From positions 4,594-68,593 of the forward strand of contig CAYSXZ010000047.1 in the NCBI GenBank assembly GCA_964435235.1: 64,000 bases of DNA, in the 5' to 3' direction. The stretch comes from Candidatus Micrarchaeota archaeon. Lineage in GTDB: Archaea; Micrarchaeota; Micrarchaeia; Anstonellales; Bilamarchaeaceae. Each line of letters begins with the position of its first letter. The stretch's first letter is position 1. The notes beneath the pieces are model-generated. The model saw nothing but the letters and a program-made list of their open reading frames with translations. It searched no databases and was not told the origin of the DNA. Shown piece by piece: positions 4,021 to 52,371 of the stretch. The position numbers and the translations under genes were made by a program.

Positions 4021-5241
4021 ATGGAAAAACCTGATATAAGCCAACTAAGGATAATCGCGCTCTCGCTACTGAATTCTGTGGATAAGCTACGGCGAAGACA
4101 CATCGTTGGAAGGTTGCTTTCTTCGCTACAAACAAAACCACGAATCAAGCTTCTTAGGGGATTTAGAGGCGTTGGTAAAACTACAGCAATGCTTCATGCA
4201 TTTGGTATGATGAAGGAAAAAGCGTTATATTTTTCCGCAGATAATCCAATTGTTAAGAGCCATGGAATATACAACACAGGTAAGGATGCTATAAAAAATG
4301 GATTTGGTTTGCTTTTCATAGATGAGGTTCATACCTATCCAGAATGGAGAGCCGAGATAAAGGCACTGCACGACGAGTTTCCTTCACTTATCATCGTTGC
4401 AAGCGGGAGTGCACCACTTGCCCTCGTCCCTGAAAGAAGGGAAGAATTGATATGCCTCCATGAGATGGATATGGAAGAATCAGCATTTATTGGAACTGGA
4501 AAGAGCGTATTCGCAGACGAAGAATGGCGAGACAGGGAAGAGGCAATGAGATTCATAGCTGCAAATCAAGAAATAGCAAACACCTTTCACAGCTATTCTC
4601 GCGTGGGAGGCTTCCCTCTTTCATTTGAATTGGAGGAAGGAAGAGCGCTAGACGCGATATACAACTCTATAAGAAAGTCCATACGTGAGGATGCCGTATT
4701 CTTCTTGAAGATGTCGAAAGAAAAGATCTTTGCGATGGAAAACCTCTTGAATTTTCTTGCAACATCCAAGCCTGGAGAACTAAGTCTTACTTCGCTTTCT
4801 TCCACACTACGGGTTTCTAAAACAGTAGTCTACGAAATAATCGATAGTCTTTCTGCGATGGAAATCGTGCGTGTTATCAGACCCTACGCTGGTGGGGCTG
4901 CGCTTGTTCGAGCAGAGCCCAAACTACTATTCTTCCATCCAAATATGCGATTTGCGATATGCCGTCAACTTGGAAGACAGGCGGACGAAGGCGCAGTGAG
5001 AGAGGAACTTGCGGTATTCGGCCTCTCAGAACGCGGTTGGACTATCCATACTATTAAGGGAGAGAAGAAATCACCAGACTATGTAATAGAAAAAGGAAAA
5101 GAAAAACTGATTGTTGAAATAGGTGGGGAAAGAAAAACACGTATCCAACTTAAAGGATTTCCGGAGGGACTTGTAATTGGGGAATATCAGCTTATTCCAC
5201 TGCTTTTAGTCGCAAAAAGTTCCAAATTTGACCAAAAATAG
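4021..5241 (+). CDS. AAA+ ATPase, COG1373/DUF4143-type
   Basis: 406 aa; Walker A GFRGVGKTT, Walker B LLFIDEVH, wHTH-like middle region, C-terminal DUF4143-like segment. C-terminus LLVAKSSKFDQK overlaps repeat R1 copy B. Confidence 0.75.
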   Translation: MEKPDISQLRIIALSLLNSVDKLRRRHIVGRLLSSLQTKPRIKLLRGFRGVGKTTAMLHAFGMMKEKALYFSADNPIVKSHGIYNTGKDAIKNGFGLLFIDEVHTYPEWRAEIKALHDEFPSLIIVASGSAPLALVPERREELICLHEMDMEESAFIGTGKSVFADEEWRDREEAMRFIAANQEIANTFHSYSRVGGFPLSFELEEGRALDAIYNSIRKSIREDAVFFLKMSKEKIFAMENLLNFLATSKPGELSLTSLSSTLRVSKTVVYEIIDSLSAMEIVRVIRPYAGGAALVRAEPKLLFFHPNMRFAICRQLGRQADEGAVREELAVFGLSERGWTIHTIKGEKKSPDYVIEKGKEKLIVEIGGERKTRIQLKGFPEGLVIGEYQLIPLLLVAKSSKFDQK

Positions 5242-5258
5242 TCGAAAAACCGACTATT
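5207..5258. repeat. direct repeat R1, copy B
   Basis: Near-identical to 3939-3991 (gaccaaaaatag vs gatcaaaaaatag); encodes the C-terminus of the 4021..5241 ATPase. Confidence 0.85.
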
Positions 5259-5289
5259 AAAAAGGGTCAACAAATTATTTGTTTTAAGG

Positions 5290-5340
5290 TGGTCAATAAA
5301 TTGACCGAATTTGCTATTTTTCGGTCAATAAACTGACCGA
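5290..5340. repeat. about 50-bp direct repeat R2, copy A, containing palindromes ggtcaatAAattgacc and cggtcaataaactgaccg
   Basis: ggtcaataaattgaccgaatttgctatttttcggtcaataaactgaccga; second copy at 6583-6633. Confidence 0.85.
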
Positions 5341-5370
5341 TTTATAAAACTTTGCTTGCTATAGTGATAC

Positions 5371-6591
5371 ATGGGTGTTATTGAATTTCTTAAGGAAGAG
5401 CGCTTTCTGATGGAAGATGCACTTCGTGGATATGTAAAGGAGACAAAGCGTGACGCTTACAGCCAGCTTGGGAAAGCAAACATAGTAGTATTACATGGCT
5501 TGCGTGGAACTGGAAAGACAACCATTATTGCGCAGAAATACTTTGAGAGTGATAAAAGGCTTGCTATTCACGGCGAGCATCTTAAGCTTGCAGGTTATAC
5601 TATAAAGGACCTTATACCAGTTATGAGGTACGTCTTGCCTGAAGGTTATCTTTTCATAGACGAAATAACAAAACTAAGGACATGGCCGGAGGAAATAAAG
5701 ATTCTTTCGGACCTCTATCCAAAAATAAAAATAATATTAACAGGATCGTCTGCTGTGGATCTTCAGAATGCGAAGCTGGTATTGGCACGACGAGCAGTTT
5801 TCGCAACTCTTTCTCCACTTTCCTTCAGCGAATTTTTACGAATAAAGTATGGAAAACAATTGCTCTCTTTTGATCCGTTTGCGAAAGACCCACTCACACA
5901 TGCCTTAAGAGTGGAGATGGATTTTAGAGAAAAAATAAAGGAGGATCCTGTAGATGTACTCTCAGGATACAAAAAGCAAAACCTTCCGTATCTTATCGAA
6001 AGGCCTGCTTCAACTGTGTTGGATATGATAGACAGAGTGATCTACGAAGATATAGGTACAACTGGCTCCTTTACTGAAGATGTAATCGAAAAATTCTGGC
6101 CGCTTCTAAGATTGCTTGCACTTTCTGAGAAAATCAGTTATGACAATCTTTCTAAGGATCTTGGAGTAGGAAAAGGAACTGTAATAAAAATGATTAACTT
6201 TCTTTCATTGGCGCACGTAATTAGACCTGTTTTCCCCTATGTTTTGGGAAAAGGAAAGGTAAGAAGAGAACCAAAGTATCTCTTTGCATCCCCCGTAATA
6301 AGGGAAGTCATACTGAATGTTCTTGGCGAGAGGGAGCGGGGAAGAGGATTAGGACGAGAGGATATGTTTGCAATGCATATCAGCAATGAATTGTTCTATC
6401 TGAAAACAGGACCTGATTATGTATGGAGGGATGGTATATTTGAGGTCGGAGGACCAAACAAGGGTTCTGAGCAGTTTAAAGGTCTGAAAATAAAAGGAAG
6501 AAAATTCATAATCCATGAAGGCGTGGAGATCCTCTCTGGTGATGTGTTGGCAGTACCATTCTATATCTTCCTTTTGCATAATAGTCAATAA
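5371..6591 (+). CDS. AAA+ ATPase, COG1373/DUF4143-type (paralog of 4021..5241)
   Basis: 406 aa; Walker A GLRGTGKTT, Walker B LFIDEIT; same architecture as the upstream paralog. Confidence 0.75.
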   Translation: MGVIEFLKEERFLMEDALRGYVKETKRDAYSQLGKANIVVLHGLRGTGKTTIIAQKYFESDKRLAIHGEHLKLAGYTIKDLIPVMRYVLPEGYLFIDEITKLRTWPEEIKILSDLYPKIKIILTGSSAVDLQNAKLVLARRAVFATLSPLSFSEFLRIKYGKQLLSFDPFAKDPLTHALRVEMDFREKIKEDPVDVLSGYKKQNLPYLIERPASTVLDMIDRVIYEDIGTTGSFTEDVIEKFWPLLRLLALSEKISYDNLSKDLGVGKGTVIKMINFLSLAHVIRPVFPYVLGKGKVRREPKYLFASPVIREVILNVLGERERGRGLGREDMFAMHISNELFYLKTGPDYVWRDGIFEVGGPNKGSEQFKGLKIKGRKFIIHEGVEILSGDVLAVPFYIFLLHNSQ

Positions 6592-8359: not shown

Positions 8360-9175
8360 TCAGACAGTTACGGTTTCTCCTGGAACACGCCTAAATAGTT
8401 GCACATCCCCAACATGGTCAGCACCGGTGAGATAGCGAACTAGACGCTCGACGCCAAATCCTCCACCTGCAGATGGTACCAAGCCCTCTTTGGCAAGCTC
8501 TAAATACGACTCAAATCTCTTCATGTCTAAACCATGTCTAGTTATTTTTTGTATTATTATATCATACTCATGCTCGCGTTCCGCGCCAGAGAGAGCTTCA
8601 CCGAAACCCTCTGGATATACGAGATCATAGTTCAGATAATGGCCAGGCTCTTTCGGGTCCTCCTTATCATAAAACTCTCTTTTATGACAGAGCGCCCAAA
8701 ATGGTTGCTTTGCTGCTTGTGAAGCATGGATTTCCCAATCTTCCCCATATCTTTCTGCGAGTTCGTGAGTAGTATATCTAGGAAAGGGTTTAACTATCTC
8801 TGGCAACCCCCTTCCAAGAAATTTAAGCTGCTCTGCGCATTCCATCTTTACGTGTTCTACCATGCTTATCAGAAAGTCTTCCATCAGTTCGAATACAGTT
8901 TCCCTTGTTCCATATGCAATCTCAAAATCAACCTGTGAAAACTCAAAAAGATGCCTTCCGGTTTCTTTTCGTTTTGGGTGTTCAAGCCTAATGTTTGGAG
9001 AGATGATAAATATTTTTTCAAGTCTTTCTTTTATCGCAAGCTGTTTGTGAAGAATCATGGATTGGGTTAATGTAAGTCTTTGACCGAGATATTCAATTTC
9101 CCCACTCTTGATGACTGAACTTCCAGGATCAGGACCAAGCGGGTCAGTTACTGGAGAGAGTATTACTGGCATCAT
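8360..9175 (-). CDS. asnA: aspartate-ammonia ligase AsnA-like / class II aaRS catalytic-core paralog
   Basis: 271 aa with class II aaRS motif 3-like GGGFGVERLVRYLTG and no anticodon-binding domain; divergently paired with an AsnC/Lrp regulator as in the classical asnC-asnA arrangement. Confidence 0.55.
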   Translation of the reverse strand: MMPVILSPVTDPLGPDPGSSVIKSGEIEYLGQRLTLTQSMILHKQLAIKERLEKIFIISPNIRLEHPKRKETGRHLFEFSQVDFEIAYGTRETVFELMEDFLISMVEHVKMECAEQLKFLGRGLPEIVKPFPRYTTHELAERYGEDWEIHASQAAKQPFWALCHKREFYDKEDPKEPGHYLNYDLVYPEGFGEALSGAEREHEYDIIIQKITRHGLDMKRFESYLELAKEGLVPSAGGGFGVERLVRYLTGADHVGDVQLFRRVPGETVTV

Positions 9176-9379: not shown

Positions 9380-9814
9380 ATGGACCAAAAGGATATGGAG
9401 ATACTTGGAGAATTGATTACTGATGGAAAAGCAAAGATAAAGAAGATCGCAAAGAAACTAGGTTTGCCTATGAGCACCGTCCACCACCGCATTCTTAGAA
9501 TGGAAAAGGAAGGTCTGATAAAGAAGTACACAGCAATTCCTAATTACAAAAAAATTGGCTTACCGATTCTCGCATACGTCTTCGCAAATGTTGATTATTC
9601 GAAAGCAACCTCTCAAGAGGAAGTAGCGTGTGAAATAAAAAAGCTCCCGAATATTATGGAGGTTAACATCGTCGCTGGTGAGATAGATATAGTTGCAAAA
9701 ATAAGAGTGAAGGACATCGATGAGCTGAGTGATGTAGTAATCAAAAAGATGAGGAACATAAAAGGGATGGCTAAGACGGTAACAGCCGTGGTAATGAAAG
9801 AGATAGAAGCTTGA
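9380..9814 (+). CDS. Lrp/AsnC family transcriptional regulator
   Basis: 144 aa; N-terminal HTH (DMEILGELITDGKAKIKKIAKKLGLPMSTVHHRILRMEKEG) plus C-terminal RAM domain. Confidence 0.8.
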   Translation: MDQKDMEILGELITDGKAKIKKIAKKLGLPMSTVHHRILRMEKEGLIKKYTAIPNYKKIGLPILAYVFANVDYSKATSQEEVACEIKKLPNIMEVNIVAGEIDIVAKIRVKDIDELSDVVIKKMRNIKGMAKTVTAVVMKEIEA

Positions 9815-9876
9815 TATTTTAATAAATCTTTAAAATTTTCAATAAATTTTTAAATATTTCGAATTAATATTAAAAC
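9815..9876 (+). promoter_or_regulatory. AT-rich promoter/operator region of the heat-shock operon, with tandem aataaatNtttaaa motifs
   Basis: tattttaataaatctttaaaattttcaataaatttttaaatatttcgaattaatattaaaac immediately upstream of the wHTH gene; TATA-like elements and a direct-repeat motif. Confidence 0.3.
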
Positions 9877-10371
9877 ATGGCAAGCGAAAAGGCAGAGAAA
9901 ATACCAGTAAAGGTGAGGCAAAGAAGCCGGAGCGGGGCAACAGAGGGAGAGTGGGAGGAAGAAAGAAAGATTCAGCCGAGAGAAATCGAGATACGCGAAG
10001 TAGAGGAACCAAAGATTCCGAGCCCTGAAGCGACGATAGATTGGATTTTTAGATGCCTTGGCGGAAGCGAGGAGGACAGGCTTGCACGAGAGATTTTCAA
10101 AGAACTTGTATACGCGGGAAGAAAAGGGGTTCGCTCTAAGGACCTCCAGAAGAAGACAAGGGTGACCCAGGGAGCGATTGTCTATCATCTTAATACATTT
10201 ATGCGTTGCGGATTAGTAAACAAACAGGGAAGATATTATTACTTAAGAAGGCAGAGTCTCGATAGAACGCTGGAAGAGTTGGAAGACGAGATATTAAGAA
10301 GGTTCGAGAGAATGAGAAGGCTTGCCAGGATGATAGAAGAGGAAATGGAAAGAGAGATGGAAAGATTCTGA
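9877..10371 (+). CDS. winged-helix transcriptional regulator, first gene of hsp20-grpE-dnaK-dnaJ operon (candidate heat-shock regulator)
   Basis: 164 aa; charged N-terminus, wHTH segment AREIFKELVYAGRKGVRSKDLQKKTRVTQGAIVYHLNTFMRCGLVNKQGRYYYL, C-terminal coiled coil; stop is 20 nt before hsp20. Confidence 0.55.
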   Translation: MASEKAEKIPVKVRQRSRSGATEGEWEEERKIQPREIEIREVEEPKIPSPEATIDWIFRCLGGSEEDRLAREIFKELVYAGRKGVRSKDLQKKTRVTQGAIVYHLNTFMRCGLVNKQGRYYYLRRQSLDRTLEELEDEILRRFERMRRLARMIEEEMEREMERF

Positions 10372-10390
10372 TATTTAGGAGGTGGTATGT

Positions 10391-10834
10391 ATGGCAAAGG
10401 AAATTAGAATATATGACCCATTTGAGGAAATGAGGAGATTGCGAAGGGAGATGGACGAGATGTTCGAGTCCATGTTCCTCCGACCTAAGAGAGAGGATTG
10501 GATTGTTAGATCACCGTTAAGCGACCTTGTTGACAAGGGAGATTCTTTTGAGCTTACAGTAGAGCTTCCCGGAATGAATAAGGAGGACATCCACATAGAA
10601 GCTGATAAGAATTCTATTTCCGTAAGCGCGGAGAGGAAAAAGGCGGAAGAGGAGAAAAAGAAGAACTACTATTATTGCGAGAGGAGCTACACAGGGTATA
10701 GAAGAGCATTCGGGCTTCCAGAGGAGATAGACCCAGAAACAGTGGACGCAGAATTCAAAAACGGTGTCTTAACAGTTGTTATGAAGAAGGTAAAGCCGAA
10801 GGGGGCAAAGAAGGAGGTAAAGATTAAAGGGTGA
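10391..10834 (+). CDS. hsp20: small heat shock protein, Hsp20/alpha-crystallin family
   Basis: Alpha-crystallin domain with GVLTVVMKK and AFGLPEEID motifs; GGAGG about 10 nt upstream of ATG 10391 (the ORF track starts at 10382). Confidence 0.85.
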   Translation: MAKEIRIYDPFEEMRRLRREMDEMFESMFLRPKREDWIVRSPLSDLVDKGDSFELTVELPGMNKEDIHIEADKNSISVSAERKKAEEEKKKNYYYCERSYTGYRRAFGLPEEIDPETVDAEFKNGVLTVVMKKVKPKGAKKEVKIKG

Positions 10835-10841
10835 ACAGGAG

Positions 10842-11399
10842 ATGGAAAAGAAAGAGACGGAGAAGAGCGAGGAGCCTGTGGAAGCAAATAAGGAGGAGAA
10901 GGAAAAGAAAGAGTCTGAGGAAGAGTTGAAACTAAAAGAGCTAGAGGACAAATTTCTCCGTCTCTATGCAGAATTCGAAAATTTTAGAAAAAGAACAGCC
11001 AAGGAGCAGGAAGGGATCGCAGAAAGAGCAAAGGCTTCCTTACTGCTTAAACTCCTTCCTGTTCTTGATGAGCTTGAGCTTGCAACCGTCCATACGAAGG
11101 ATAAGGGTGAAAAAAGCAATGAAAAGGTTGGCATTGAAATGATATACAAAAATATGATGAAGATACTCACACAAGAAGGACTTTCCGAGATGGATACTTT
11201 GGGAAAGCAGTTTGATCCCTACTACCATGAAGCAGTCCGCGAAGCGGATGGCGAGGAAGGGAAGGTAGTAGAAGTAATTCAGAAAGGTTACATGTTCAAA
11301 GGGGTAGTTCTTCGACATGCAAAGGTTGTAGTAGGAAAGAAGAAAGAAGAAAAAAGAAAAGAGGAGAAGGAAAACAAGGATGATAAAGTAGGTGGTTAA
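10842..11399 (+). CDS. grpE: nucleotide exchange factor GrpE
   Basis: [17 protein letters not shown] signature; KE-rich N-terminal extension. Confidence 0.85.
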
Positions 11400-11400
11400 T

Positions 11401-13272
11401 ATGGGTAAGATAATCGGAATAGATTTAGGAACATCAAATTCAGCAGCAGCATTTTTGGAAGGAGGAAGACCAAGGATAATACCGAGCGCTGAAGGCGCAT
11501 CACAGTACGGAAAATCTTTCCCAAGCTATGTTGCCTTTACAAAGGACGGACAGAGACTTGTAGGAGAGCCGGCAAGGAGACAGATGGTTGCAAATCCAGA
11601 AGGAACTGTGACCGCTTTCAAGAGAAAGATGGGAACGACGTACAAATATAATATATTTGGAAAGGAGTACACCCCGCAAGAACTTTCTGCCATTCTTCTT
11701 CAAAAAATAAAAAGAGATGCAGAGGAATTCATAGGGGAAAAAATCGAGAAGGCAGTGATAACAGTCCCAGCGTATTTTAACGATAATCAGAGGCAGGCGA
11801 CAAAGGATGCTGGAAGGATTGCTGGATTGGAAGTTGTTCGACTTGTAAACGAACCAACAGCAGCATGTCTTGCTTACGGATTAGATAAAGCACAGAAAGA
11901 GATGAAAATTCTTGTTTTCGACCTTGGAGGAGGAACGCTGGATGTAACCATCATGGAGTTTGGCGGTGGGGTATTTGAGGTTAAAGCAACTGCAGGAGAC
12001 ACCCAACTTGGAGGAACAGACATGGACAAAATCATAGCGGAGTTTCTCACAGATGAATTCAGAAAGCAAACCGGTGCTGATGTTTCAAAAGATAAGCAGG
12101 CGCAGAATAGAATCTTAGAAGCTGCTGAGAAGGCTAAGATAGAACTTTCAACAACGCTTGAAACAGAAATTAATCTTCCATTCCTTACATCTGTAAAGGG
12201 AGAGCCAAAGCATTTCACATATAAACTTACTCGAGCGAAGCTTGAGGACCTCATAAGACCGATTATAGAGAGGTGTAGGAACCCGGTCGAGAGAGCATTG
12301 CGAGATGCAAAACTATCCCCAGGGGATATAGATAAAATAATACTAGTTGGCGGGCCAACAAGAATGCCCATAGTGCAGAAATTTGTTGAGGATACCATAG
12401 GGAAAAAAGTCGAGAGAGGGGTCGACCCAATGGAATGTGTTGCTATGGGCGCAGCGATTCAGGGCGGCGTTCTATCTGGTGAGGTAAAGGATATTGTCCT
12501 TCTTGACGTTACGCCGTTATCTCTCGGAATAGAGACGTTGGGCGGAATCGCAACAAAATTGATCGAGAGGAACACAACCATTCCGACGAGAAGGACGCAG
12601 ATATTCACGACTGCAGCAGATATGCAGACAAGCGTTGAGATACATGTTGTTCAGGGTGAGAGACCGATGGCAAAGGACAATGTCTCACTTGGAAGATTTG
12701 TACTTAGTGGAATCCCTCCTGCGCCTCGTGGTGTCCCTCAGATCGAAGTGACCTATGACATAGATGCAAACGGAATACTCACTGTTACAGCTGTTGATAA
12801 GGCAACTGGAAAGAAACAGGACATGAGGATTGTAGCGCCACAAAAGATGAGCGAGGAGGAAATAAAGGCAAAGATGAAGGAAGCGGAACAGTATGCGGAA
12901 GAAGACAGAAAGGCATTAGAGCTTGCTCAGGCAAAGAATGACGCTGAGTCGATGATATACACTGCAAACAAAACGATCGATGAATTTAAAGATAAACTAA
13001 CAGAAGGCCAGAAGAAGGAGATAGAAGAAGCGTCAGCTAAGGTAAGGAGCGCTATCGCGAGCAATGATATTGCAAATATAAGAAACGAGATGGAGGCTCT
13101 CAAAAAATTACTCGAAAAGGTTGGTGCATCCTTCTACAGTGGTGGTCCAGGTATGGGTGGAACAGGACCGACCGGAACTGGTGGGGAGGAAACCACTTCG
13201 CCAGGAGGCGGAACAGGAGGATCAACGCCTGGTTCTGAAGCTGGATGGGAGGACACTGGGTCAAAAGGATGA
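11401..13272 (+). CDS. dnaK: molecular chaperone DnaK (Hsp70)
   Basis: [27 protein letters not shown] and other Hsp70 signatures; Gly-rich C-terminal tail; ATG at 11401 preferred over the track start 11392. Confidence 0.95.
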
Positions 13273-13284
13273 AGGTGAGACTGA

Positions 13285-14406
13285 GTGGCAACAAAGAAGG
13301 ATTATTACGAAGTTCTTGGAGTTCCAAGGAACGCAACAAAGGACGATATCAAAAGAGCGTACAGAAGGCTCGCTATGCAATACCATCCAGACAGGAACAA
13401 ATCTCCTGATGCAGAAGAAAAGTTCAAGGAGATAAGCGAGGCATACGCTGTTCTAAGCGATGACCAAAAGCGCGCCGAGTATGACATGTATGGTCATGCC
13501 GGCTTTGATAGAATGTATTCCACAGAGGATATATTCAGAAGTGCAAACTTCAGAGATTTTGAGGACCTTTTCAGGAGTATGGGCTTTGGGGAGGACCCAT
13601 TCGACCTATTCGGTTCGATGTTTGGATTTGGAAGGGAAGGAAGGGTAAGAAGCTATGACATAGGTGCGGACCTTCAGATGGAAGTTGAAATAACTCTTGA
13701 GGAGGCTGCAAGGGGAACAAAGAGGACGTTATCTTATATGAGGAACGCACCTTGCTCGAAGTGCAAGGGAAGCGGTGCAGAACCAGGAACAGGATTAAGG
13801 ACATGCAGCAAGTGCGGAGGGAGAGGGCAGATAAGGAGCACAAAAAGAATGGGCTTCATGACATTTACCTCTGTTTCAACATGTCCTCAGTGCAAAGGAA
13901 CCGGGCAATCTTACGAGAAACCGTGTAGCGAGTGTAGAGGAACTGGAAGAAAAAGGATAACCCAGGATTTAAGCATCGATATCCCACCAGGTGTTCGTGA
14001 TGGAATGCGCCTTCGCCTTCCTGGATATGGTGAATATGGTAAGGATAGGACAGGAACTCTCTATGTTTATGTTAGGATTGCAAGGCATAAAATATTTGAG
14101 AGAAAAGGGGACAATCTTTTTGTTACGGTGCCAATAAGTTTCACTCAAGCTGCGCTAGGAGCAGAGATAGAGGTACCCACTTTGTTCGGAAAGACGCACC
14201 TAAGAATTCCAGAAGGAACGCAATCGCATTCAGAGTTCGTAATTCGAAATGAAGGGATGCCTCACTTTAACAGCAGGGAACGTGGCGATCTTATTGTAAA
14301 AGTTGTCGTAGAGGTCCCAAAGAAGTTGACAAAGAAGCAAAGGGAACTCCTAAAACAATTCGAAGAAGAATCTGGGAAGAAGAGATGGTTTTTCGGGATT
14401 TTCTGA
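13285..14406 (+). CDS. dnaJ: chaperone DnaJ
   Basis: J-domain with HPD (YHPDRN), G/F-rich region, four CxxCxGxG zinc-finger repeats. Confidence 0.9.
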
Positions 14407-14408
14407 GA

Positions 14409-15105
14409 TCAGATAAAATCTGAGATATCGACAACCTTCAGCTTTGTCGGATAACGGACTTCTTTCTTATCCGGAACGAAAAGAAGCTTTTCATTCGCCT
14501 TAACATTTTCAAGGTTTTTCTCAGCCTTTTCGATATCCGTCTTGTCTATTTTCTTCCATTTTATCTCAACAGCCACCTTGGGTTTCTTGAATTTCAGCAG
14601 ATAAGCGTCCACGTCATAGTCGCTTGCTTCCACTATCGTTTCATCCAAGCCAAGCCGCTCTGCAAGAAACTCCCTTATGCCGTCTTCAACCAGGCGTGGT
14701 ATAAGCTCTCCAGTATTATGAAGGGCAGCTTTTACTTCTTCATCAGAGTAAGAGTCGTTCAATTGTTTTATAACTAACATCAAAACCAAATAGTGGCTGA
14801 AATGCTTCAAGTGCCTCCTCAGTACCTCTATTGGATTTGTTGATCCATCTAGTAAAAAGAAAAAGCATGACCTTCCTTTCAAGATCTATTTTTGGAGGTC
14901 TACCTCGCTCCCGGTCTTCTCTTTGAATCATTTCGACTGCTTTCTTTACATAAACAGAGAGATTTCTTAGGCGTTCTTTTACTTTCTCCCTTTTCTTTTC
15001 CCATTCTGAGTAAGGATACTCCTTTTCTCTCCCCTTAAAGTATCTCTCACGAACTTCATCCAAAACTTCAAGGAGCTCTTTTGCTCTTTTTTTCGTGATC
15101 ATCAT
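14409..15105 (-). pseudogene. disrupted gene: IS4/IS5-like transposase N-terminal fragment (120 aa) frameshifted into a DUF234/PD-(D/E)xK-like C-terminal ORF (157 aa)
   Basis: Two overlapping minus-strand ORFs in different frames (14743..15105 and 14409..14882). Upstream piece has GRPPKIDLERKVMLFLFTRWINKS, resembling the N-terminal region of IS4/IS5 transposases (compare GRPFKFPIAFILFLALLK in the adjacent IS). Downstream piece has D.D...KVAVEIKWKK, like the DUF234 domain at the end of 56266..57636. Confidence 0.35.
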
Positions 15106-15299: not shown

Positions 15300-16450
15300 A
15301 TTATCTGCAGAGACTAGAAATTATTTTTGTCCCAAAGCCCGGATTTACTGTAAGCATAAAGGCCAAGGAGGTTCTTTGACCAGTTCCTCCATTGGGGCCA
15401 GTGGCGTAAACCTCCTACGCCGATGATAAAATGATAGTATGGCAAATATATAATAAGCATTTGGTGGACAGGATTACTAGGCTCTGGGATTTTTCTTTCC
15501 TTGAAACATGGGATGAAGATCTCAGGAAGATGAATGCCTTGAAAGTTGGCAGACCATTCAAATTTCCAATTGCTTTTATTCTCTTCCTTGCTCTTCTGAA
15601 AGTTACCTATGGCATGCCATACAGGAGCCTCGAAGCCATGCTTATTGGACTTAGGCAATTGAGTAGGAAAATTCAGGTTCCGGATTTCACAACTATATTT
15701 CGAAGAGTAGAAAAACTTGTGATACAGATTCATGAAAAAAAGTCCCTTCAGAAGTCATTAACGCGATAAGGGAAGGACATGCAAAAGTTGCAATTGACAG
15801 TTCTGGCTTATCCGTAACCTGCAGGGGAGAATGGCTGAGATACAAGCACAAGGATGGAAAGATTGCATGCAGAAAGGGGTTTGTCAAAATTCATATCAGT
15901 GTTGATATTTTCAGAGGTACAATTCTAGGAGTTGAGATAACAGATGAAAAGGCTTCTGGTAGTTCTGCCTTGCCCTCCTTAACCTATCAGTCAAAGGAAG
16001 TTGCAGATATTGATGCAGAATTTATGGATGGTGCCTATGATACATATGAAAATTTTAGGGAACTTGATGCGATGGGTATAAAACCAGTGATAAAACCAAG
16101 AAAAACTGGCATCGTCATTAGCTCTAGCCATGGCTATGTTGCAGGCAGGAGAAGCCTGTATATTCACGAGATAAAAAAGCATGGATATGACTATTGGAAA
16201 AAGAAGCACAACTACGGCTGCAGATGGTTAGCAGAAGTTGGTTTCTCAAGCTTCAAGCGGAGGTTTGAGGAGAGTTTGATGAGCAAGAAATTTAAAAATA
16301 TGGTAAACGAGGCAAAATTGAAGGTTATGGCCTACAATATGATTACAAATTGGCCAAGGGGATGGTGAATTTTGCAGTTTTAGCAGTTGATTTAGCAACT
16401 AAGAGAAACAATTATGCAACAGAGTAACTGTTCTAGATCGAAAAAGGATT
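15300..16450 (+). mobile_element. IS4/IS5 (ISH-like)-family insertion sequence; boundaries approximate
   Basis: Contains a DDE transposase in two frames; terminal inverted repeats could not be defined confidently by eye. Confidence 0.5.
15431..16368 (+). CDS. IS4/IS5-family DDE transposase, requires -1 frameshift at A7G (15735-15742)
   Basis: Frame A 15431..15769 (GRPFKFPIAFILFLALLKVTYGMPYRSLEA); frame B is open from 15736 to 16368 and encodes AIDSSG...KIHISVD...DGAYDT DDE-type motifs. The two frames overlap at gaaaaaaag. Confidence 0.7.
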
Positions 16451-46024: not shown

Positions 46025-47113
46025 TTAGATAAGTTTAACAAGGCCTCTGCCTATCTCAGGAATGTTTCCTCCGAAAAGATTTGTAGTGTTCAGAATAAAG
46101 GTGAGCATAAGAATGGCTGCCGCAAGAGGAGCGAGACATATCGAGGCAAAAACCCTTTTAAAGAGCTTCCCTATGTATCCAGTCCTAAAATCGAGAAGAT
46201 TTACAATTTGATCATAACTACTTTTGATGATTAGAGGTATCTCACCAATTATCTTCGAGAAAGATGCGGGATTATTCCTAAATTGTTCTTCATTAAACGG
46301 CAAGGCAGGCAGGCTGCACAGGTAGTACGGAGAACCTTTTTCAATAGCTGCTTGGCATCCTCCAACCGGTGTTAGCACCCCCTCCTGAGCTTCAGGTAGG
46401 GAGATGTTCGCTATGAGAACGTAGCCGAATGGAAATATAAAATAAAACCCTATAGAGGCAGCCATGAGGTATGCACCGGCGCCTCTTGTTGGAGGAAAGG
46501 CCCTAAGCGCAACCCCTATTGCAAAGAAAAATCCAGCATAGTGTTTTACGAAGTTAAGAGAGTGGAGAAGAACATAGTAGATATAAAGATAGAAAGAGAG
46601 CATCTGTGTAGTGTTTTTTATTCTTTCAGCAATCGCCTTTACACCGTAGCCAGTTGCTTGCTCTGACATGAACACTTCCATATAAACAGAGGCTGCAGAT
46701 TCTATTGGGATGCTTGCAATATAAAGAGTATGGAGAGTATCTTGAACGCATCTTGCAGGAGTCTCCATATACAGTTTTGTGTAATCTATCAAGGTAGTGG
46801 CTGGTATGTTGCCTACCATAGGCGTAAAGGAACAGGTGGTGCAGTCGATTCCAAAGCTGTTGAAGTAAAGGCATCTAACAACTGCAACAATTGCATTCTC
46901 TCCAACATAAAGAAGACCGATTACCATCAGAACTATAAAAACAGTGGATGCTGCATAAACAAATTCTACCTTTGCAGTCTGTTCAAGATTTCTTAAATTC
47001 AACGCCCTTGACAATATGATAAGCATAGCAGCGCCCATGACAGATATTCCTGCGGCTGCAAACGAGATCGTCTGCCAGTCAAGCCATCCACTTATATTAG
47101 TTGCAAAGGCCAT
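46025..47113 (-). CDS. paralogous polytopic membrane protein, family member 6 of 6
   Basis: 362 aa; shares GVALRAFPPTRGAG...FIFPF and C-terminal NIPEIGRGLVKLI with five upstream paralogs. Confidence 0.5.
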   Translation of the reverse strand: MAFATNISGWLDWQTISFAAAGISVMGAAMLIILSRALNLRNLEQTAKVEFVYAASTVFIVLMVIGLLYVGENAIVAVVRCLYFNSFGIDCTTCSFTPMVGNIPATTLIDYTKLYMETPARCVQDTLHTLYIASIPIESAASVYMEVFMSEQATGYGVKAIAERIKNTTQMLSFYLYIYYVLLHSLNFVKHYAGFFFAIGVALRAFPPTRGAGAYLMAASIGFYFIFPFGYVLIANISLPEAQEGVLTPVGGCQAAIEKGSPYYLCSLPALPFNEEQFRNNPASFSKIIGEIPLIIKSSYDQIVNLLDFRTGYIGKLFKRVFASICLAPLAAAILMLTFILNTTNLFGGNIPEIGRGLVKLI

Positions 47114-47128
47114 GGTATCATCCTTATA

Positions 47129-48211
47129 CTATATCATCCTTGTTAATGAACTTATGTCTACCTCCTCGCCGAAACTTTTGCTAAGAGATAATGCTGCTTG
47201 CGTGAATATTAGAATATTAAACGCTGGCATTAAATAACCAATCATGAAAGCCTTCCCGACAACAGAGATTGGAAAAACCATAATTACTAAGAAGATGCTT
47301 CCAAAAACATCCTGCAGCAGATTGCCTATACTGCCTAGCGCTCCGGTTACGAACCCGAAAAGACCACTACTGTAAGTGAATGGATTAAGAAAGTGCGATA
47401 TCTTAGTCCAAAAATCACCACCAGGTCCGTAATACTGTACAATAAAACTTCTGAAAGTTATCATCGGCCCATTTTCATTGTAAAAAATAAAATAAGTAAG
47501 GGTAGTAAGAAAAGGAAAAATCAAGAGAAAACTAAGACATACTGCGATCAGTGTGCCACCGAGCCTTCTTGTTGGAAGAAAACAACGCAGGAAAACGCCT
47601 ATCGGAAGGTAATAACCAAGAAAGACCTCTGTGGCAAAGAGAAATGTGTAGTATTGGGCGTAATTTATAACGTATGCTATGGTAAGCGCAGTAGTGCAGT
47701 TATAAAGAAGTTGCTTAAGAGGGGTTGCAAAACCAGCAAGAGGAGCGGAAACAAGACCTATCCCTAGCGGTCTTGCATATTGAGTTATTGAAGAAGCCAT
47801 ATCTACGTACACATTAATAACGTAATTAAGGTTCAGCCAAACCTCCATATCCCTACCTACCTCAAGAAAATAATTTTCGGTTATTTCATAGATAGTGGCA
47901 TCAGGGCTCACGCCAGATGGTAGGACCGATGGCGGAAGCAGTTTTCCTATACCTAGGTTTGAAAGAGAACCTGCAATACCAATAACATAAAATACTAGAA
48001 TGGCAGTGACAACTACCTCGTAAAGTTCTAGTTTTACAAACGATATCAATTCATTGTTGCGGAAAAGCGTGCCCCAGGCATATATGAATGCAAGAATGAC
48101 TACTGAGGTTAGAAGAGCTGCGCCGCAGAGGGCAACCCACGACCAGAAGCCGCCCCCAGAAGCAGCAAACGCAGGTATACTTGTTATAGGTATCGGTGGC
48201 ATATTGACCAC
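47129..48211 (-). CDS. paralogous polytopic membrane protein, family member 5 of 6
   Basis: 360 aa; KLELYEV after TM1, GVFLRCFLPTRRLGG...LIFPF, C-terminus GEEVDISSLTRMI. Confidence 0.5.
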   Translation of the reverse strand: MVNMPPIPITSIPAFAASGGGFWSWVALCGAALLTSVVILAFIYAWGTLFRNNELISFVKLELYEVVVTAILVFYVIGIAGSLSNLGIGKLLPPSVLPSGVSPDATIYEITENYFLEVGRDMEVWLNLNYVINVYVDMASSITQYARPLGIGLVSAPLAGFATPLKQLLYNCTTALTIAYVINYAQYYTFLFATEVFLGYYLPIGVFLRCFLPTRRLGGTLIAVCLSFLLIFPFLTTLTYFIFYNENGPMITFRSFIVQYYGPGGDFWTKISHFLNPFTYSSGLFGFVTGALGSIGNLLQDVFGSIFLVIMVFPISVVGKAFMIGYLMPAFNILIFTQAALSLSKSFGEEVDISSLTRMI

Positions 48212-48212
48212 A

Positions 48213-49436
48213 TCATAATATTCTAAGGAATCCTAGGAAATTGATATTTACATTAAATACTCTTGCCCACTCCCTAGCTAGCGTTAGCGTTATAAATATA
48301 TTAAGGAAGGGCAGTAGCATGCTCATTATAACAATATAATAAACACTAGACCTTATAAGCTCAAATGCAACGGATACTGCGCTGCCCACAAAGAATGGAA
48401 ATATCACTCCTCCCATCAGTAATGCCAGCACTATAAGAGCTCCGGAGACCGAAAATATCCCGCTCCTTGCTACAAAGGACTGGAGTACAGAATCTCCATC
48501 TATGAGAGTGAGCTTCATTAGCTTATGTGCTTCATAATCGAATATAAACATGAACGGATATATTGTACCAAGCGCAAAGGTTAGCATCAGCAGAGCTTCT
48601 CCAGCATTTCTCGTATACGGAACCGCTCTTAGCACCATACCTAGGGGTATAAAGAGGCCCCACATCCAGCGCTTTATAAAGCATAGCACGATTATATGGA
48701 TCATCCATTCGCTTATTGCAAGCGAGAGGTACTGGGTTGCCGTTCCAACTATATCCAGTAATGGTTTGAGGACAGGTCCGAGATTGAAGTTGTACATCGC
48801 TCGCCAGCTTACTCCTACCCACATCGTTGATGAATAAATTGTGTGGATTACCATGTTATACATAACGAGAATACTATAATTGTCTATCATTTCCGCAACC
48901 ATTGTTCTTGAGAATGCCATAGCTGCATCTAGCATATAAGGATTATGGAGGTAGAGTGGGTCTGATGTTCCGGTCGCGGATATGCTATAAAATAGATTTC
49001 CTGCGGTTATGGTTCCGATGATAAAGACAACTCTAAGGATTGTAATTATGGTTTGATATAATTCGTCCTTTGCTAGCGCGATGAGATTTGGAGACTGAAA
49101 AAATTGCCCGCCCATATAAAGTACGGCTAACGAGAAGAGGATTATAATCGTTACCATTATCGCTGGGGCAAACCATGTTTCTATTATTATGGTCGGGTCG
49201 AAGACAAATTCTGGCCCGCAATACCCTGGATCGAAAGCTGAATAGACGTTTTGGAAGAAGCCTGGCACAGTTCCTCCTGCTGTTTCAAACGAATTTATGA
49301 AAGCGCTTCCTTCTCTTTCTAATCTTTGTACCGCCCTGTCAGTAAAATGTTTGAACTCCCCGGATTCTTCTTGAGCATAAGCAATTTCTAGAAGGAAAAG
49401 AAATATCGCAAGCGATACAAAGAAAATTTTTCTCAT
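48213..49436 (-). CDS. paralogous polytopic membrane protein, family member 4 of 6
   Basis: 407 aa; signal-peptide-like N-terminus, SPNLIALAKDELYQ, GMVLRAVPYTRNAG...IYPF. Confidence 0.5.
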   Translation of the reverse strand: MRKIFFVSLAIFLFLLEIAYAQEESGEFKHFTDRAVQRLEREGSAFINSFETAGGTVPGFFQNVYSAFDPGYCGPEFVFDPTIIIETWFAPAIMVTIIILFSLAVLYMGGQFFQSPNLIALAKDELYQTIITILRVVFIIGTITAGNLFYSISATGTSDPLYLHNPYMLDAAMAFSRTMVAEMIDNYSILVMYNMVIHTIYSSTMWVGVSWRAMYNFNLGPVLKPLLDIVGTATQYLSLAISEWMIHIIVLCFIKRWMWGLFIPLGMVLRAVPYTRNAGEALLMLTFALGTIYPFMFIFDYEAHKLMKLTLIDGDSVLQSFVARSGIFSVSGALIVLALLMGGVIFPFFVGSAVSVAFELIRSSVYYIVIMSMLLPFLNIFITLTLAREWARVFNVNINFLGFLRIL

Positions 49437-49437
49437 G

Positions 49438-50811
49438 TTATATCAGCCTCGTCAATCCAGCTATCTCTATATCCCCTCCGAATGTTATCGAAAGCGACCT
49501 TATCGCAGCTATCGTTCCCAGGAGTCCGAAAAGAGAGAAAAAAAGAGAGAAAAATGTGAGCCTTGCAAGAACATCAATAAAACCACCAGGCCCCCAGTAT
49601 GAAGGACCACCAGGAATACTCTGCGCGAGCCTATCTATCAGGTTCATTCTAAAAACACTTTCACGCCAACTCTGAGATGCTTCCTGCATCCTGTTAAACG
49701 CTCTTTCTTTCTCATTATCGCTCATGCTACCAAAATTTTTACTCAAATCTATGTTTGGGGCCAATCCTCCACCCGCGCTGCCGCATCTCCCTTCTTCAAC
49801 GCATTGTTTAAATTCCTCATCGCTCATATCTTCATAAGCTCTTAGCCTTTCCTCTAGCTCTTGATTGCTAACATCCCCGCCAACCATATTTATGGTGCCG
49901 TCAACATAGAGGGTATTAGCGAGAGGAGGGTTGTGGCTTATTGGCGTCCCAAGATATCTGTTGCCTGGATTTGCAGGATCATTCTCCCACATAGGTCTTG
50001 CCTTTTCCTTCAAATCTATCAGCACCAAACCACCGAATGCGTAGAATGCGGGATAGATGAAATAAAGCGCAATTGCAATGCCGAGAAGAAGCCCGCCTAG
50101 TTTTCTAGTGAATACAAATGTCCTAAGAATACAGCCTAGTATGAGAAGGGCTGGGAAGAGGGCGACTGCGACGAACCTAAGCATGAGTTCCTGGAATTTT
50201 GTAAGGAGATTTATCTTCATCGCCCAATCGAATGCCAGATCCTTTATTAAATTACCCATCGTATAGAAGCCCCTAAACGGGTTCCATGTAAAGAAGCCCG
50301 CTTGTTCGAAAACAAATTCGATGTTTATAGAAAACTCAGCCGCGATGGATGTCCAGAGATAACTGCGATAAACTGCATAAGCAAAATCTCTTCCCTCTGC
50401 GAAAATTTCCCTTAGATAGTAAGTTGCAAGTCTGATGTGACAGGACTCAAGGTCTCCGTAAATTCCGCTCCTTGCCATACGAGGACCGCATATGTCTATT
50501 AACGTTTCATCCGGAAAGCCAGCTTCCGGGTCTCGTATCCATGTTTGAGTAGACTGCCCACCTCCCAAATTAGAAACTCCGAGTGCGCCCTGCACAATCG
50601 CATCTACAATTCCTACTGAAGATATACATAAGGAGAATACTAACGCTGAGTAGAATATCTCAAGAAGCTCCATCTTCGCCCATGTCTTCATCTTTTCATT
50701 CATAAGAAGGGAGCCTAGAGCATACACAAGGGCTACCAATGCAGTCATGATAGAGAATGCAGCTGCCGCAATCCAGCCCCAAAAAATAAACAATCCAACT
50801 ATGTCAGGCAT
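49438..50811 (-). CDS. paralogous polytopic membrane protein, family member 3 of 6
   Basis: 457 aa; KMELLEIFY, GCILRTFVFTRKLGG...IYPAF, large soluble insert, C-terminus GGDIEIAGLTRLI. Confidence 0.5.
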   Translation of the reverse strand: MPDIVGLFIFWGWIAAAAFSIMTALVALVYALGSLLMNEKMKTWAKMELLEIFYSALVFSLCISSVGIVDAIVQGALGVSNLGGGQSTQTWIRDPEAGFPDETLIDICGPRMARSGIYGDLESCHIRLATYYLREIFAEGRDFAYAVYRSYLWTSIAAEFSINIEFVFEQAGFFTWNPFRGFYTMGNLIKDLAFDWAMKINLLTKFQELMLRFVAVALFPALLILGCILRTFVFTRKLGGLLLGIAIALYFIYPAFYAFGGLVLIDLKEKARPMWENDPANPGNRYLGTPISHNPPLANTLYVDGTINMVGGDVSNQELEERLRAYEDMSDEEFKQCVEEGRCGSAGGGLAPNIDLSKNFGSMSDNEKERAFNRMQEASQSWRESVFRMNLIDRLAQSIPGGPSYWGPGGFIDVLARLTFFSLFFSLFGLLGTIAAIRSLSITFGGDIEIAGLTRLI

Positions 50812-50814
50812 ACT

Positions 50815-52362
50815 CTATCCCTTCATAACAATAAACTTTGTCATCGCATTTATAGATGCGATCGTTATAATAGTAGCTACTCCTGGAGAGAAGATACCAA
50901 GTAAGGAAACGGCTGCAAGAGACTTAAGTACTGGGAGAAAGATGGACATGCTTAGCCCGTGAATAAATCCCTCAGAGAATATCGTTTGAAATCGTTGTAC
51001 AATAGCAGAAGCGTAGGGAAGATCCATTGCGCTTATAAGGACTGGAGGTATGCTAGCGTACACGTAAATTAGGCCGCACAGACTGCTTATTGGAAAACTT
51101 AATGACGTGTATTCGGAAAGCCCAACATTTCCAAGAGCAATTGTGTTTATGAAATACGCGGTCGGAAAGATTATTTGAAAACCGAAGGCAAGTGATATTA
51201 AAAATGCACCTGCCTCGCGCGTTGGTGGGAAAAAGCGCAGAACCAAACCTGCTGGAAGAAGAAAACGTACCATTACAACATCTATAAAATTAAGTAAAAA
51301 TATCTGCACAGAAAGACTTGCGTATATCATGACAAAACCTAGTGCGAGAATATTTGTCATGGAAACGAAGGTGTCTATTCCAGGAAATACCTTAAAGGTT
51401 GGTGATAACACCTGCTCCCCTATTCTTTTTTGAAATGTGTTTAGCACTGAGGTGCATGCTTGAATGGTGTAAACATCCATCAGCGCCTTATAGACGTTGT
51501 CTGCATAACCGCGAAGTTGTTCTGCTGCCGCAAGAGGAGGGGACGAGCTACCAACTACCGCAGTTGAAATAGTACTACTAACAGCAAAGAAGCTTATAAC
51601 AAATATCAAAAGAAGAAAGGAATTAATGAGATTCGTAAGCTCGATATTCAGATAGGCCTCCCATTCCGGTACCCTGAATATCTTTGCTACGAGATAAGTT
51701 ATAAGAATTATAGAAGATATCATCAGAACAACAAAGACTACTGCGTCTCTGTATGGAGTAAGAACGACTTCCTTGCCTCCTATAGAGAAGCTAACTATCA
51801 TCATTGAAAGAATGTTGGTTGCGATGTAGAAAAGAATGATATAAATAAGCGCTGCTATAAGGGCAGACCCAAGAAGCACCTGCGACCATACAGTTGCCCT
51901 TGCCCTTGTTTCTGCACCGAAAAGTTGACCTATGGCAAACGCACCAGCTGCGATTACCACCATAATTACTATAAGGTAGAGAAGGGCGCGCTGTGCGAGA
52001 CTGCTCAATCTCTGCAATAACACAGAGAGGTCTAATGTTGGCATCCCTCCTCCTGAAAAGATTGGAACAAAAAATGAGAATAAAATTATAACAAGTGCTG
52101 AAACCCCTATAGCAGCAAGCAGCCCACCAGACCATGCTTGTATCCTTGCCCTTGTTTCTGCTCCAAAGAATTGCCCGAATACATAGCCACCTGCGGCTAT
52201 CACTGCCATCACTATCATTAACATTATCAAGATTGCTTGAACTGTATAGAAAACATTAATCGTCTCCTCCCTGGGCTCAAGAGGGGTTGTGGAAAACTGC
52301 GCAAGTGCGAGCGGTAGAAGAACAAGAAAGGCAAATACCGCAATAACTGCCATTTTATTCAT
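50815..52362 (-). CDS. paralogous polytopic membrane protein, family member 2 of 6 (N-terminal internal duplication)
   Basis: 515 aa; signal-peptide-like N-terminus; duplicated segment AAGGYVFGQFFGAETRARIQAW / AAGAFAIGQLFGAETRARATVW; GLVLRFFPPTREAG...IIFPTAYF. Confidence 0.5.
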   Translation of the reverse strand: MNKMAVIAVFAFLVLLPLALAQFSTTPLEPREETINVFYTVQAILIMLMIVMAVIAAGGYVFGQFFGAETRARIQAWSGGLLAAIGVSALVIILFSFFVPIFSGGGMPTLDLSVLLQRLSSLAQRALLYLIVIMVVIAAGAFAIGQLFGAETRARATVWSQVLLGSALIAALIYIILFYIATNILSMMIVSFSIGGKEVVLTPYRDAVVFVVLMISSIILITYLVAKIFRVPEWEAYLNIELTNLINSFLLLIFVISFFAVSSTISTAVVGSSSPPLAAAEQLRGYADNVYKALMDVYTIQACTSVLNTFQKRIGEQVLSPTFKVFPGIDTFVSMTNILALGFVMIYASLSVQIFLLNFIDVVMVRFLLPAGLVLRFFPPTREAGAFLISLAFGFQIIFPTAYFINTIALGNVGLSEYTSLSFPISSLCGLIYVYASIPPVLISAMDLPYASAIVQRFQTIFSEGFIHGLSMSIFLPVLKSLAAVSLLGIFSPGVATIITIASINAMTKFIVMKG

Positions 52363-52371
52363 ATTCTACAC

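Follow-up and report, generated by a model that had tools for sequence, protein, structure and literature searches.

How is a bacterial-type chaperone operon controlled in an archaeon? The question is raised by a 64,000-nt stretch of Candidatus Micrarchaeota DNA (hereafter, the window), in which a gene for a 164-amino-acid (aa) winged helix-turn-helix (wHTH) protein (9877-10371, + strand) stands directly ahead of hsp20, grpE, dnaK and dnaJ. On comparative sequence evidence and by analogy with characterized systems, we consider it likely that this protein is dedicated to the regulation of the wHTH-hsp20-grpE-dnaK-dnaJ operon, most probably as an autorepressor, and that the operon has a single promoter, with a B recognition element (BRE) and a TATA box, and a leaderless mRNA. 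The initial annotation of this DNA had proposed an autoregulated archaeal heat-shock regulator of a new type. Conserved gene order and conserved dyads support a heat-shock role and a dedicated, chaperone-linked regulator. However, "new type" was an overstatement, because autoregulating wHTH proteins that head hsp20 operons are already known (HSR1 and Phr), and the protein itself is ArsR/SmtB-like and has a large family.

The 164-aa protein is placed by sequence in a large archaeal family, with members in Micrarchaeota, Woesearchaeota and Nanoarchaeota, that databases label generically. A word-indexed search found only 13 close relatives, of which one carries the name Bilamarchaeaceae, and the loci of close relatives recovered in a genome scan are labelled Micrarchaeota or Bilamarchaeaceae. 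An exhaustive profile search (E ≤1e-3) yielded 273 clusters at 50% identity, whose proteins are mostly 130-145 aa long and mostly span the whole conserved core and the C-terminal helix. When 90%-identity clusters were searched with a profile, 954 proteins were recovered, which puts the size of the family at 950 or more; the named members among them are from Woesearchaeota or Nanoarchaeota and carry the label "ArsR/wHTH transcriptional regulator." This Woesearchaeota/Nanoarchaeota branch (hereafter, Woese-type) is homologous to the Micrarchaeota branch over the full length (hhalign 99.6%, E 8e-24), and an alignment of the Micrarchaeota branch (A1) matches one of more distant members (A4) at 99.9% in the same program. 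A further branch of the family includes a metagenome-assembled genome of Bathyarchaeia, so that at least one Bathyarchaeia genome carries a member.

Throughout this family, the regulator gene is found next to chaperone genes. The initial annotation would have been refuted by absence of the wHTH gene from its place in close relatives, which is not what was observed. In all 15 Micrarchaeota loci compared (that of the window and L001-L014), the gene lies beside grpE-dnaK, adjoining a (hsp20)-grpE-dnaK-dnaJ cluster as a co-directional first gene in 11 cases and divergently in 4, and the other neighbours vary. In the Woese-type branch it is divergent from grpE-dnaK-dnaJ in every locus that has enough flanking sequence, and the same arrangement was observed for four out of four distant members of this type picked at random. 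Among loci L001-L097, the neighbour is grpE, dnaK or hsp20 in 59 of the 59 that have at least 1500 nt upstream. A metagenome scan with an alignment of the Woese-type branch (A3) added 80 loci, which are the best-scoring 80 of at least 546, and rarer arrangements may therefore be under-sampled. More distant members are divergent from hsp20-hsp20 (L098), from hsp20-cdc48 (L099), from hsp20-glutaredoxin (L102-104, whose proteins are 42% identical to that of the window) and, in Bathyarchaeia, from thermosome-TIP49 (L100/101). Because a place beside chaperone genes is kept through inversions, across phyla and across chaperone classes, the family is, as judged from gene order, dedicated to the control of chaperone genes.

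The Woese-type loci also provide a sharply delimited candidate operator. In 69 of 78 upstream regions, there is a perfect copy of the palindrome GTTGA-N7-TCAAC, often in the longer form GTTGAC-N5-GTCAAC. It occurs 70 times in 622,467 nt of Woese-type loci, and all 70 occurrences are in the spacer between the wHTH gene and grpE, at most 400 nt upstream of the wHTH start. When 57 non-redundant spacers were compared, 52 had a TATA box facing grpE (TTTAWATA on the grpE strand) with the palindrome starting 23 nt (44 spacers) or 26 nt (8 spacers) downstream of it. The ATG of grpE or hsp20 usually follows ~7-35 nt past the palindrome, and is farther away in some loci. This geometry, coupled with the usual archaeal distance from TATA box to start site, means that the palindrome would cover roughly +1 to +17 at the chaperone promoter. 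Phr blocks the recruitment of RNA polymerase from such a start-site position (PMC9133787). Of 46 spacers with a scorable TATA-like octamer ahead of the wHTH gene, 31 have a second TATA box whose distance to the ATG of that gene is 20-23 nt; for this reason the Woese-type wHTH gene is probably leaderless too.

Dyads were also found in the spacers of other subfamilies, namely GTTAAT-N5-ATTAAC (L099), TTAAT-N5-ATTAA (L102) and TAGAC-N5-GTCTA (L098), and related dyads stand beside hsp20 and hsp20-cdc48 where family members adjoin these genes. The layout across subfamilies is 5-N5-5, in the forms TTAAC-N5-GTTAA, TTGAC-N5-GTCAA, TTAAT-N5-ATTAA and TAGAC-N5-GTCTA. Between the operator and the grpE-facing TATA box, nearly all Woese-type spacers (L015-L097) also have a conserved tetranucleotide, TACC (read as GGTA on the wHTH strand), which precedes the GTTGA arm by 8 nt (taccNNNNNNNNGTTGA) and may be an operator extension or a promoter-proximal element. 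The Phr site, too, contains a TGGTAA.

In the window, an AT-rich spacer of 62 nt (9815-9876) lies between the wHTH gene and a preceding Lrp/AsnC-family gene. Candidate operator site 1 is a dyad, ATTTTAAT-AAATC-TTTAAAAT (9816-9836), whose centre is ~51 nt upstream of the ATG. It is followed by a conserved segment, TTTTCAAnAnAT (9837-9848, + strand), with near-invariant columns in promoter alignment A5, and then by a TATA box, tttaaata (9849-9856, + strand), that agrees with the archaeal consensus TTTAWATA and in which TAAA is invariant in A5. The segment between dyad and TATA box is a probable BRE, the probable left arm of a degenerate second dyad, or both. In the Micrarchaeota clade as a whole, the BRE/TATA region looks like such a degenerate dyad, 20 bp from the first and with the TATA box as its right arm.

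The promoter had been described in the initial annotation as carrying a tandem aataaatNtttaaa motif that might serve as an operator. Two copies, 20 nt apart, are present on the + strand (9821-9834, AATAAATCTTTAAA; 9841-9854, AATAAATTTTTAAA), and they are the only exact matches to aataaatNtttaaa in 64 kb; with at most one mismatch, 3 were found versus 0.74 expected. However, the direct repeat gives way to a better description, in which a dyad TTTTAAT-N5-TTTAAAA (9816-9836) is followed by the BRE/TATA region, and the second copy of the motif is mostly TATA box. That the promoter holds a candidate operator is borne out by the sequence block and dyad conserved across Micrarchaeota promoters. Allowing one mismatch, ATTTTAA-N7-TTAAAAT matches the 64 kb only at the dyad (0.11 matches expected), and the long operator motifs are unique to 9816-9856 within the window. 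The dyad is conserved as TTTTAAY-N5-RTTAAAA in 13 Micrarchaeota promoters, and a 47-nt block, A..TTTTAAY-N5-RTTAAAA-TTTTCAAAAG-ATTTTTAAATaTTT, is kept upstream of Micrarchaeota loci whose proteins are only 42-50% identical. The TATA box is 20-21 nt from the ATG in all Micrarchaeota loci and a Shine-Dalgarno (SD) sequence is absent, which implies that the wHTH-led mRNA is leaderless.

Enrichment at these promoters was observed for shorter parts of the dyad as well. The half-site heptamer TTTTAAC/GTTAAAA occurs 10.1 times per kb in Micrarchaeota promoter regions versus 0.20 elsewhere (~50-fold), and TTTAA-N7-TTAAA has 11 matches in promoter regions versus a single one in the 187 kb outside them. 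The lone match outside promoters is in L007, where the entire block is present a second time in partly decayed form (1783-1825 of L007, attattttaacaattcattaaaattttcaatacctttttag). This copy is ~750 nt upstream of the real block, with a 171-aa minus-strand open reading frame (ORF) between the two; an insertion seems to have duplicated the promoter. For the register of the operator, we tentatively prefer TTTTAAY-N5-RTTAAAA because its 5-N5-5 spacing matches that of all other subfamilies and of HSR1; the register RTTAAAA-TTTTAAY, in which the arms are adjacent and which is perfect in L013, was not preferred.

A conserved AT-rich block might be nothing other than a strong basal promoter (BRE/TATA with phased A-tracts), with the wHTH protein a general chromatin protein or an unrelated regulator that is co-transcribed by chance. 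Tracts of the AAAATTTT type are common in AT-rich promoters, the structural neighbours of the protein include the chromatin proteins Sso10a and Lrs14, and the statistics of short motifs in the window are weak. However, a basal element is excluded for the Woese-type palindrome, which contains G and C and whose every occurrence in 622 kb is in that one spacer. Linkage of the genes is kept in both co-directional and divergent arrangements and across phyla, and there is the ~50-fold enrichment of the TTTTAAC half-site at Micrarchaeota promoters. Thus, we regard a purely basal role of the block as very improbable.

If the dyads are operators of a dedicated regulator, the sign of regulation has to be considered. 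We favour repression because of the operator geometry of the Woese-type loci and the analogy with Phr and HSR1. Several observations weigh against an autorepressor in the window. The best Micrarchaeota dyad is upstream of BRE/TATA, with its centre at about -51, and positions upstream of BRE/TATA are often used by archaeal activators. Past the TATA box, Micrarchaeota promoters show no sequence conservation, so the Phr-like geometry of the Woese-type loci is not directly transferable to them. Matches to TTAAY-N5-RTTAA with one mismatch are below chance in the window (7 found versus 17 expected), whose high AT content makes short-motif statistics weak. A second operator target was not found in the 64-kb window, and this window has no other chaperone gene either, as judged by Pfam matches among 40 of its ORFs (31 of the 40 ORFs of at least 200 aa, and 9 smaller ones). 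Finally, we argue by comparison throughout: what the sequences show directly is the fold class, the family, the invariant chaperone linkage and the conserved dyads with their geometry, and from these we infer DNA binding, the sign of regulation, the signal, the operon transcript and its leaderless start.

The first of these observations would suit an activator. From the dyad immediately ahead of the BRE, such a protein would bring in TFB/TBP when the cell is stressed, much as HSF or Ptr2 does. The strongest dyad in the window and in other Micrarchaeota loci abuts the putative BRE, and a site upstream of BRE/TATA in archaea usually serves activation, as known from Ptr2, SurR, TrmBL1 and EarA. 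However, the Woese-type operator begins 23 nt past the TATA box that faces grpE and covers the start site, which is a repressing position, and the second, degenerate dyad of the window overlaps the TATA box itself. In addition, both characterized archaeal heat-shock wHTH regulators repress (PMC9133787). An activator is therefore quite unlikely in our judgement.

As an autorepressor, the 164-aa protein would form a homodimer held together through its long C-terminal helix. Its proposed target is the dyad TTTTAAY-N5-RTTAAAA, directly adjacent to the BRE, and probably in addition the weaker dyad that lies 20 bp farther downstream and has the TATA box for its right arm. In unstressed cells, a dimer bound at this promoter, which the regulator would share with the chaperones, would exclude TBP/TFB or RNA polymerase. 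Heat or unfolded-protein stress would then release the regulator. Release could result from intrinsic lability of the fold or of the dimer helix, which has been proposed for Phr and HSR1, or from chaperone titration, as for HspR-DnaK and HrcA-GroEL. In the window, such binding and release would autoregulate the whole operon.

An AlphaFold2 model of the protein, built on the 13-sequence alignment (pLDDT 80), has a disordered segment (residues 1-32), a short helix (50-60), a winged helix (68-123) and a single long helix (128-163). The C-terminal coiled coil described in the initial annotation is consistent with this last helix of the model. A conserved I-x-I-R-x-V-x-x-P segment was also recognized in the gene product, in addition to the disordered N-terminus, the winged helix and the C-terminal helix. 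Searches of Pfam (E ≤0.1) produced only sub-threshold wHTH matches (HTH_5, B-block_TFIIIC, MarR_2 and HTH_20), of which HTH_5 has E 1e-3 and 19.4 bits against a threshold of 22. Profile comparison with structures in the PDB matched 2oqg (E 3.5e-5 with profile A1 and 1.7e-8 with the family profile A2) and 6j05 (E 3e-4 with A2). Foldseek placed ArsR, SmtB, Sso10a and Lrs14-like proteins at the top of its matches, and the DSSP topology of the model agrees with the winged-helix core of the ArsR/SmtB superfamily. Thus, by sequence and model, the protein belongs with the ArsR/SmtB-like winged helices, has a long helix at its C-terminus, and is neither a new fold nor an orphan.

Likeness to ArsR/SmtB metalloregulators (2oqg, 6j05 and SmtB), which are the best matches in both sequence and fold, extends to the core wHTH topology and, for 2oqg, to a C-terminal helix. 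It does not extend to gene context, which is metal resistance for the metalloregulators and chaperones for the 164-aa protein. A conserved set of Cys or His ligands for metals or metalloids (alpha3N and alpha5 sites) was not found in family alignment A2, in which only G112 is invariant. Each of the two main branches has one conserved cysteine, at different positions: Cys60 (WIFRCLG) of the 164-aa protein is invariant in the Micrarchaeota branch (A1) and is replaced by Ser in the Woese-type branch, which has an invariant Cys44 in DKSCFRVF (A3). We considered Cys60 as the basis of a redox or metal sensor but rejected this reading, since the residue is not kept across the family.

The regulators closest in kind are HSR1 (AF1298) of Archaeoglobus fulgidus and Phr (PF1790, PDB 2p4w) of Pyrococcus furiosus. 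HSR1 is a small HTH protein encoded by the first gene of an autoregulated operon with hsp20 and cdc48, and in the window, similarly, the wHTH gene and hsp20 are the first genes of one operon. HSR1 binds the 5-N5-5 palindrome CTAAC-N5-GTTAG (PMC9133787). Family members elsewhere adjoin hsp20-cdc48, and the candidate dyads have a TAAC-N5-GTTA core. We compared HSR1 by its published description, and the resemblance of its site to TTAAY-N5-RTTAA, TTGAC-N5-GTCAA and TTAAT-N5-ATTAA is one of motif class, not identity. The targets and hosts differ, in that the operons found here are bacterial-type grpE-dnaK-dnaJ and the hosts are DPANN archaea. Phr is an ArsR-like wHTH protein with a C-terminal helical dimerization element; it is a heat-shock repressor, whose targets are its own gene, hsp20 and the gene of an AAA+ ATPase, and its operator overlaps the transcription start, which is the position that the Woese-type operator appears to have. 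However, Phr is a protein of 202 aa with a site of the form TTTA..TGGTAA..AAAA, whereas the dyad of the window is upstream of the TATA box and not at the start site.

These resemblances raise the question of whether the 164-aa protein is a mere orthologue of HSR1 or of Phr (arCOG01684), with only the target operon being different. An orthologue would share the fold class and the logic of an autoregulated first gene followed by hsp20, as is observed, and the family members beside hsp20-cdc48 are linked to what is the HSR1 regulon. The dyads resemble the HSR1 site in their 5-N5-5 spacing and TAAC/GTTA core (PMC9133787), and arCOG01684 is broad enough to hold Phr, HSR1 and also SurR (PMC5852551, PMC9426492). 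The profile comparison suggested in the initial annotation confirmed similarity to ArsR, with the 2oqg match at E 1.7e-8, but not to Phr, where the match of the family profile has E 0.069 and is confined to 34 HTH residues. A phmmer search also produced no match to Phr at E ≤10, and the NCBIfam model Phr_regulator (NF053602) does not match the window protein and scores P0100 at 19.8 bits versus a cutoff of 320. In phmmer, profile, NCBIfam and fold comparisons alike, no specific sequence or structural affinity to Phr was found. Orthology with HSR1 or Phr is thus a possibility that we keep in mind but consider doubtful.

A second comparison is with the bacterial regulators of dnaK operons. HrcA is encoded first in hrcA-grpE-dnaK-dnaJ, is autoregulated, and acts at an inverted-repeat operator at the promoter (CIRCE, the controlling inverted repeat of chaperone expression). 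The initial annotation was correct in placing the wHTH gene in this first, HrcA-like position. HrcA itself was rejected as an identity, since neither its DNA-binding wHTH domain (PF03444) nor its C-terminal domain (PF01628) was found by Pfam (E ≤0.1) and the protein is 164 aa long versus ~340 aa. At about half the size of HrcA, and with an archaeal BRE/TATA promoter, it is an analogue and not a homologue, and the CIRCE consensus TTAGCACTC-N9-GAGTGCTAA has no match in the window with up to three mismatches. HspR of Streptomyces and other bacteria is a repressor encoded inside the dnaK operon, and provides a precedent for DnaK as a co-repressor in a feedback loop. However, HspR belongs to the MerR family and is encoded last in its operon, whereas the regulator gene here is first; the absence of a MerR domain by Pfam led us to reject this identity too. 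The HspR-associated inverted repeat (HAIR), CTTGAGT-N7-ACTCAAG, has a single match in the window, at 30115 with two mismatches, which is below chance expectation. The best reading, by analogy, is that the 164-aa protein is a functional archaeal counterpart of HrcA and HspR that is closest in kind to HSR1 and Phr.

A bolder version of this analogy is that a separate family of archaeal heat-shock repressors, distinct from Phr and HSR1, has in DPANN archaea seized a horizontally acquired bacterial dnaK operon as a stand-in for HrcA and senses stress by chaperone titration. We consider this version unlikely as a whole. It is speculation that the Ile-rich, basic-flanked segment near the N-terminus (R-I-T-I-I-x-x-R-K-P in the Woese-type branch and E-I-E-I-R-E-V in the window) is a DnaK client site, such that free DnaK would keep the repressor active, as with HspR and sigma-32.

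ArsR-like heat-shock regulators, and wHTH autoregulators that head an hsp20 operon, are thus already known in archaea from HSR1 and Phr. What appears from these comparisons to be new is recruitment of such a protein to the dnaK operon, its breadth across DPANN archaea, and operators that are sharply defined. In the full-text literature searched, we found neither a regulator linked to archaeal dnaK loci nor an account of this DPANN family, and to our knowledge hardly any DPANN transcription factor has an assigned target. Very probably, as judged from sequence and gene order, the family is the missing regulator, and most likely the repressor, of the DnaK system in DPANN archaea. Comparative evidence would then supply a regulator, an operator and a target for hundreds of uncultured lineages. 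Two promoter geometries appear in one family, with the operator at the start site or next to the BRE, and the window presents a case of a bacterial chaperone operon, acquired by archaea, that would have been put under an archaeal-type regulator. The same family seems to be wired to hsp20, cdc48 and thermosome genes elsewhere in archaea, which suggests that heat-shock regulators of this kind form a family wider than Phr and HSR1.

The remaining features of the operon are consistent with joint expression. Our ORF calls and Pfam matches agree with the gene order given in the initial annotation. Downstream of the wHTH gene, all on the + strand, are hsp20 (10391-10834; Pfam HSP20, E 2e-23), for a small heat-shock protein, with an ATG start, an in-frame GTG at 10382 and the SD sequence aggaggtgg upstream; grpE (10842-11399; GrpE, E 6e-41); dnaK (11401-13272; HSP70, E 5e-221), with an ATG start and a GTG at 11392; and dnaJ (13285-14406; DnaJ, DnaJ_CXXCXGXG and DnaJ_C), with a GTG start. 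Spacers of 6-20 nt had been reported; they are short, as stated, but the actual lengths of 19, 7, 1 and 12 nt do not keep to that range. Spacing of 1-19 nt fits the proposal of a single transcription unit, and the five genes look like one. Purine-rich, SD-like runs precede hsp20, grpE, dnaK and dnaJ but not the wHTH gene. No run of six or more T residues is present within 9800-14500, and the gene 3' of dnaJ is convergent. A scan for sigma-70 promoters and intrinsic terminators gave only chance-level results, as expected for an archaeon.

The dnaK operons of Woese-type loci (L015, L016, L017 and the contig of P0263) contain extra conserved genes. A CxxCxxCC (PF03692) protein is encoded between grpE and dnaK, and an HD-domain or unannotated protein of ~200 aa between dnaK and dnaJ; L016 also has a protein with a PEP-utilizers domain.

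The Lrp/AsnC-family regulator gene upstream of the operon (9380-9814, + strand; HTH_24 and AsnC_trans_reg) ends one base before the chaperone promoter spacer. It is kept at the same place in no related locus and therefore is probably unrelated to the chaperone operon, though read-through into the operon is possible. On its other side, a 271-aa protein (8360-9175, - strand) consists of a class II aminoacyl-tRNA synthetase catalytic core only (tRNA-synt_2), without the anticodon-binding domain; a full-length AspRS/AsnRS-like gene is found at 54062-55366. About 1 kb past dnaJ, two ORFs on the + strand (DDE_Tnp_1_5, 15431-15769; DDE_Tnp_1, 15970-16368) are the pieces of an IS5/IS4-type DDE transposase and together are probably a decayed insertion sequence. 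Farther along, six large ORFs in a row on the - strand (46025-53631; 362, 360, 407, 457, 515 and 419 aa) have no Pfam match at E ≤1e-5 (E ≤1e-3 for the first two). The window also encodes two tandem AAA_14 ATPase paralogues of 406 aa (4021-6591, + strand) and a third ATPase (56266-57636, + strand; ATPase_2/AAA_14/DUF234), and genes of a similar ATPase_2/AAA_14 kind are found on the flanks of the chaperone locus in L002 and L003.

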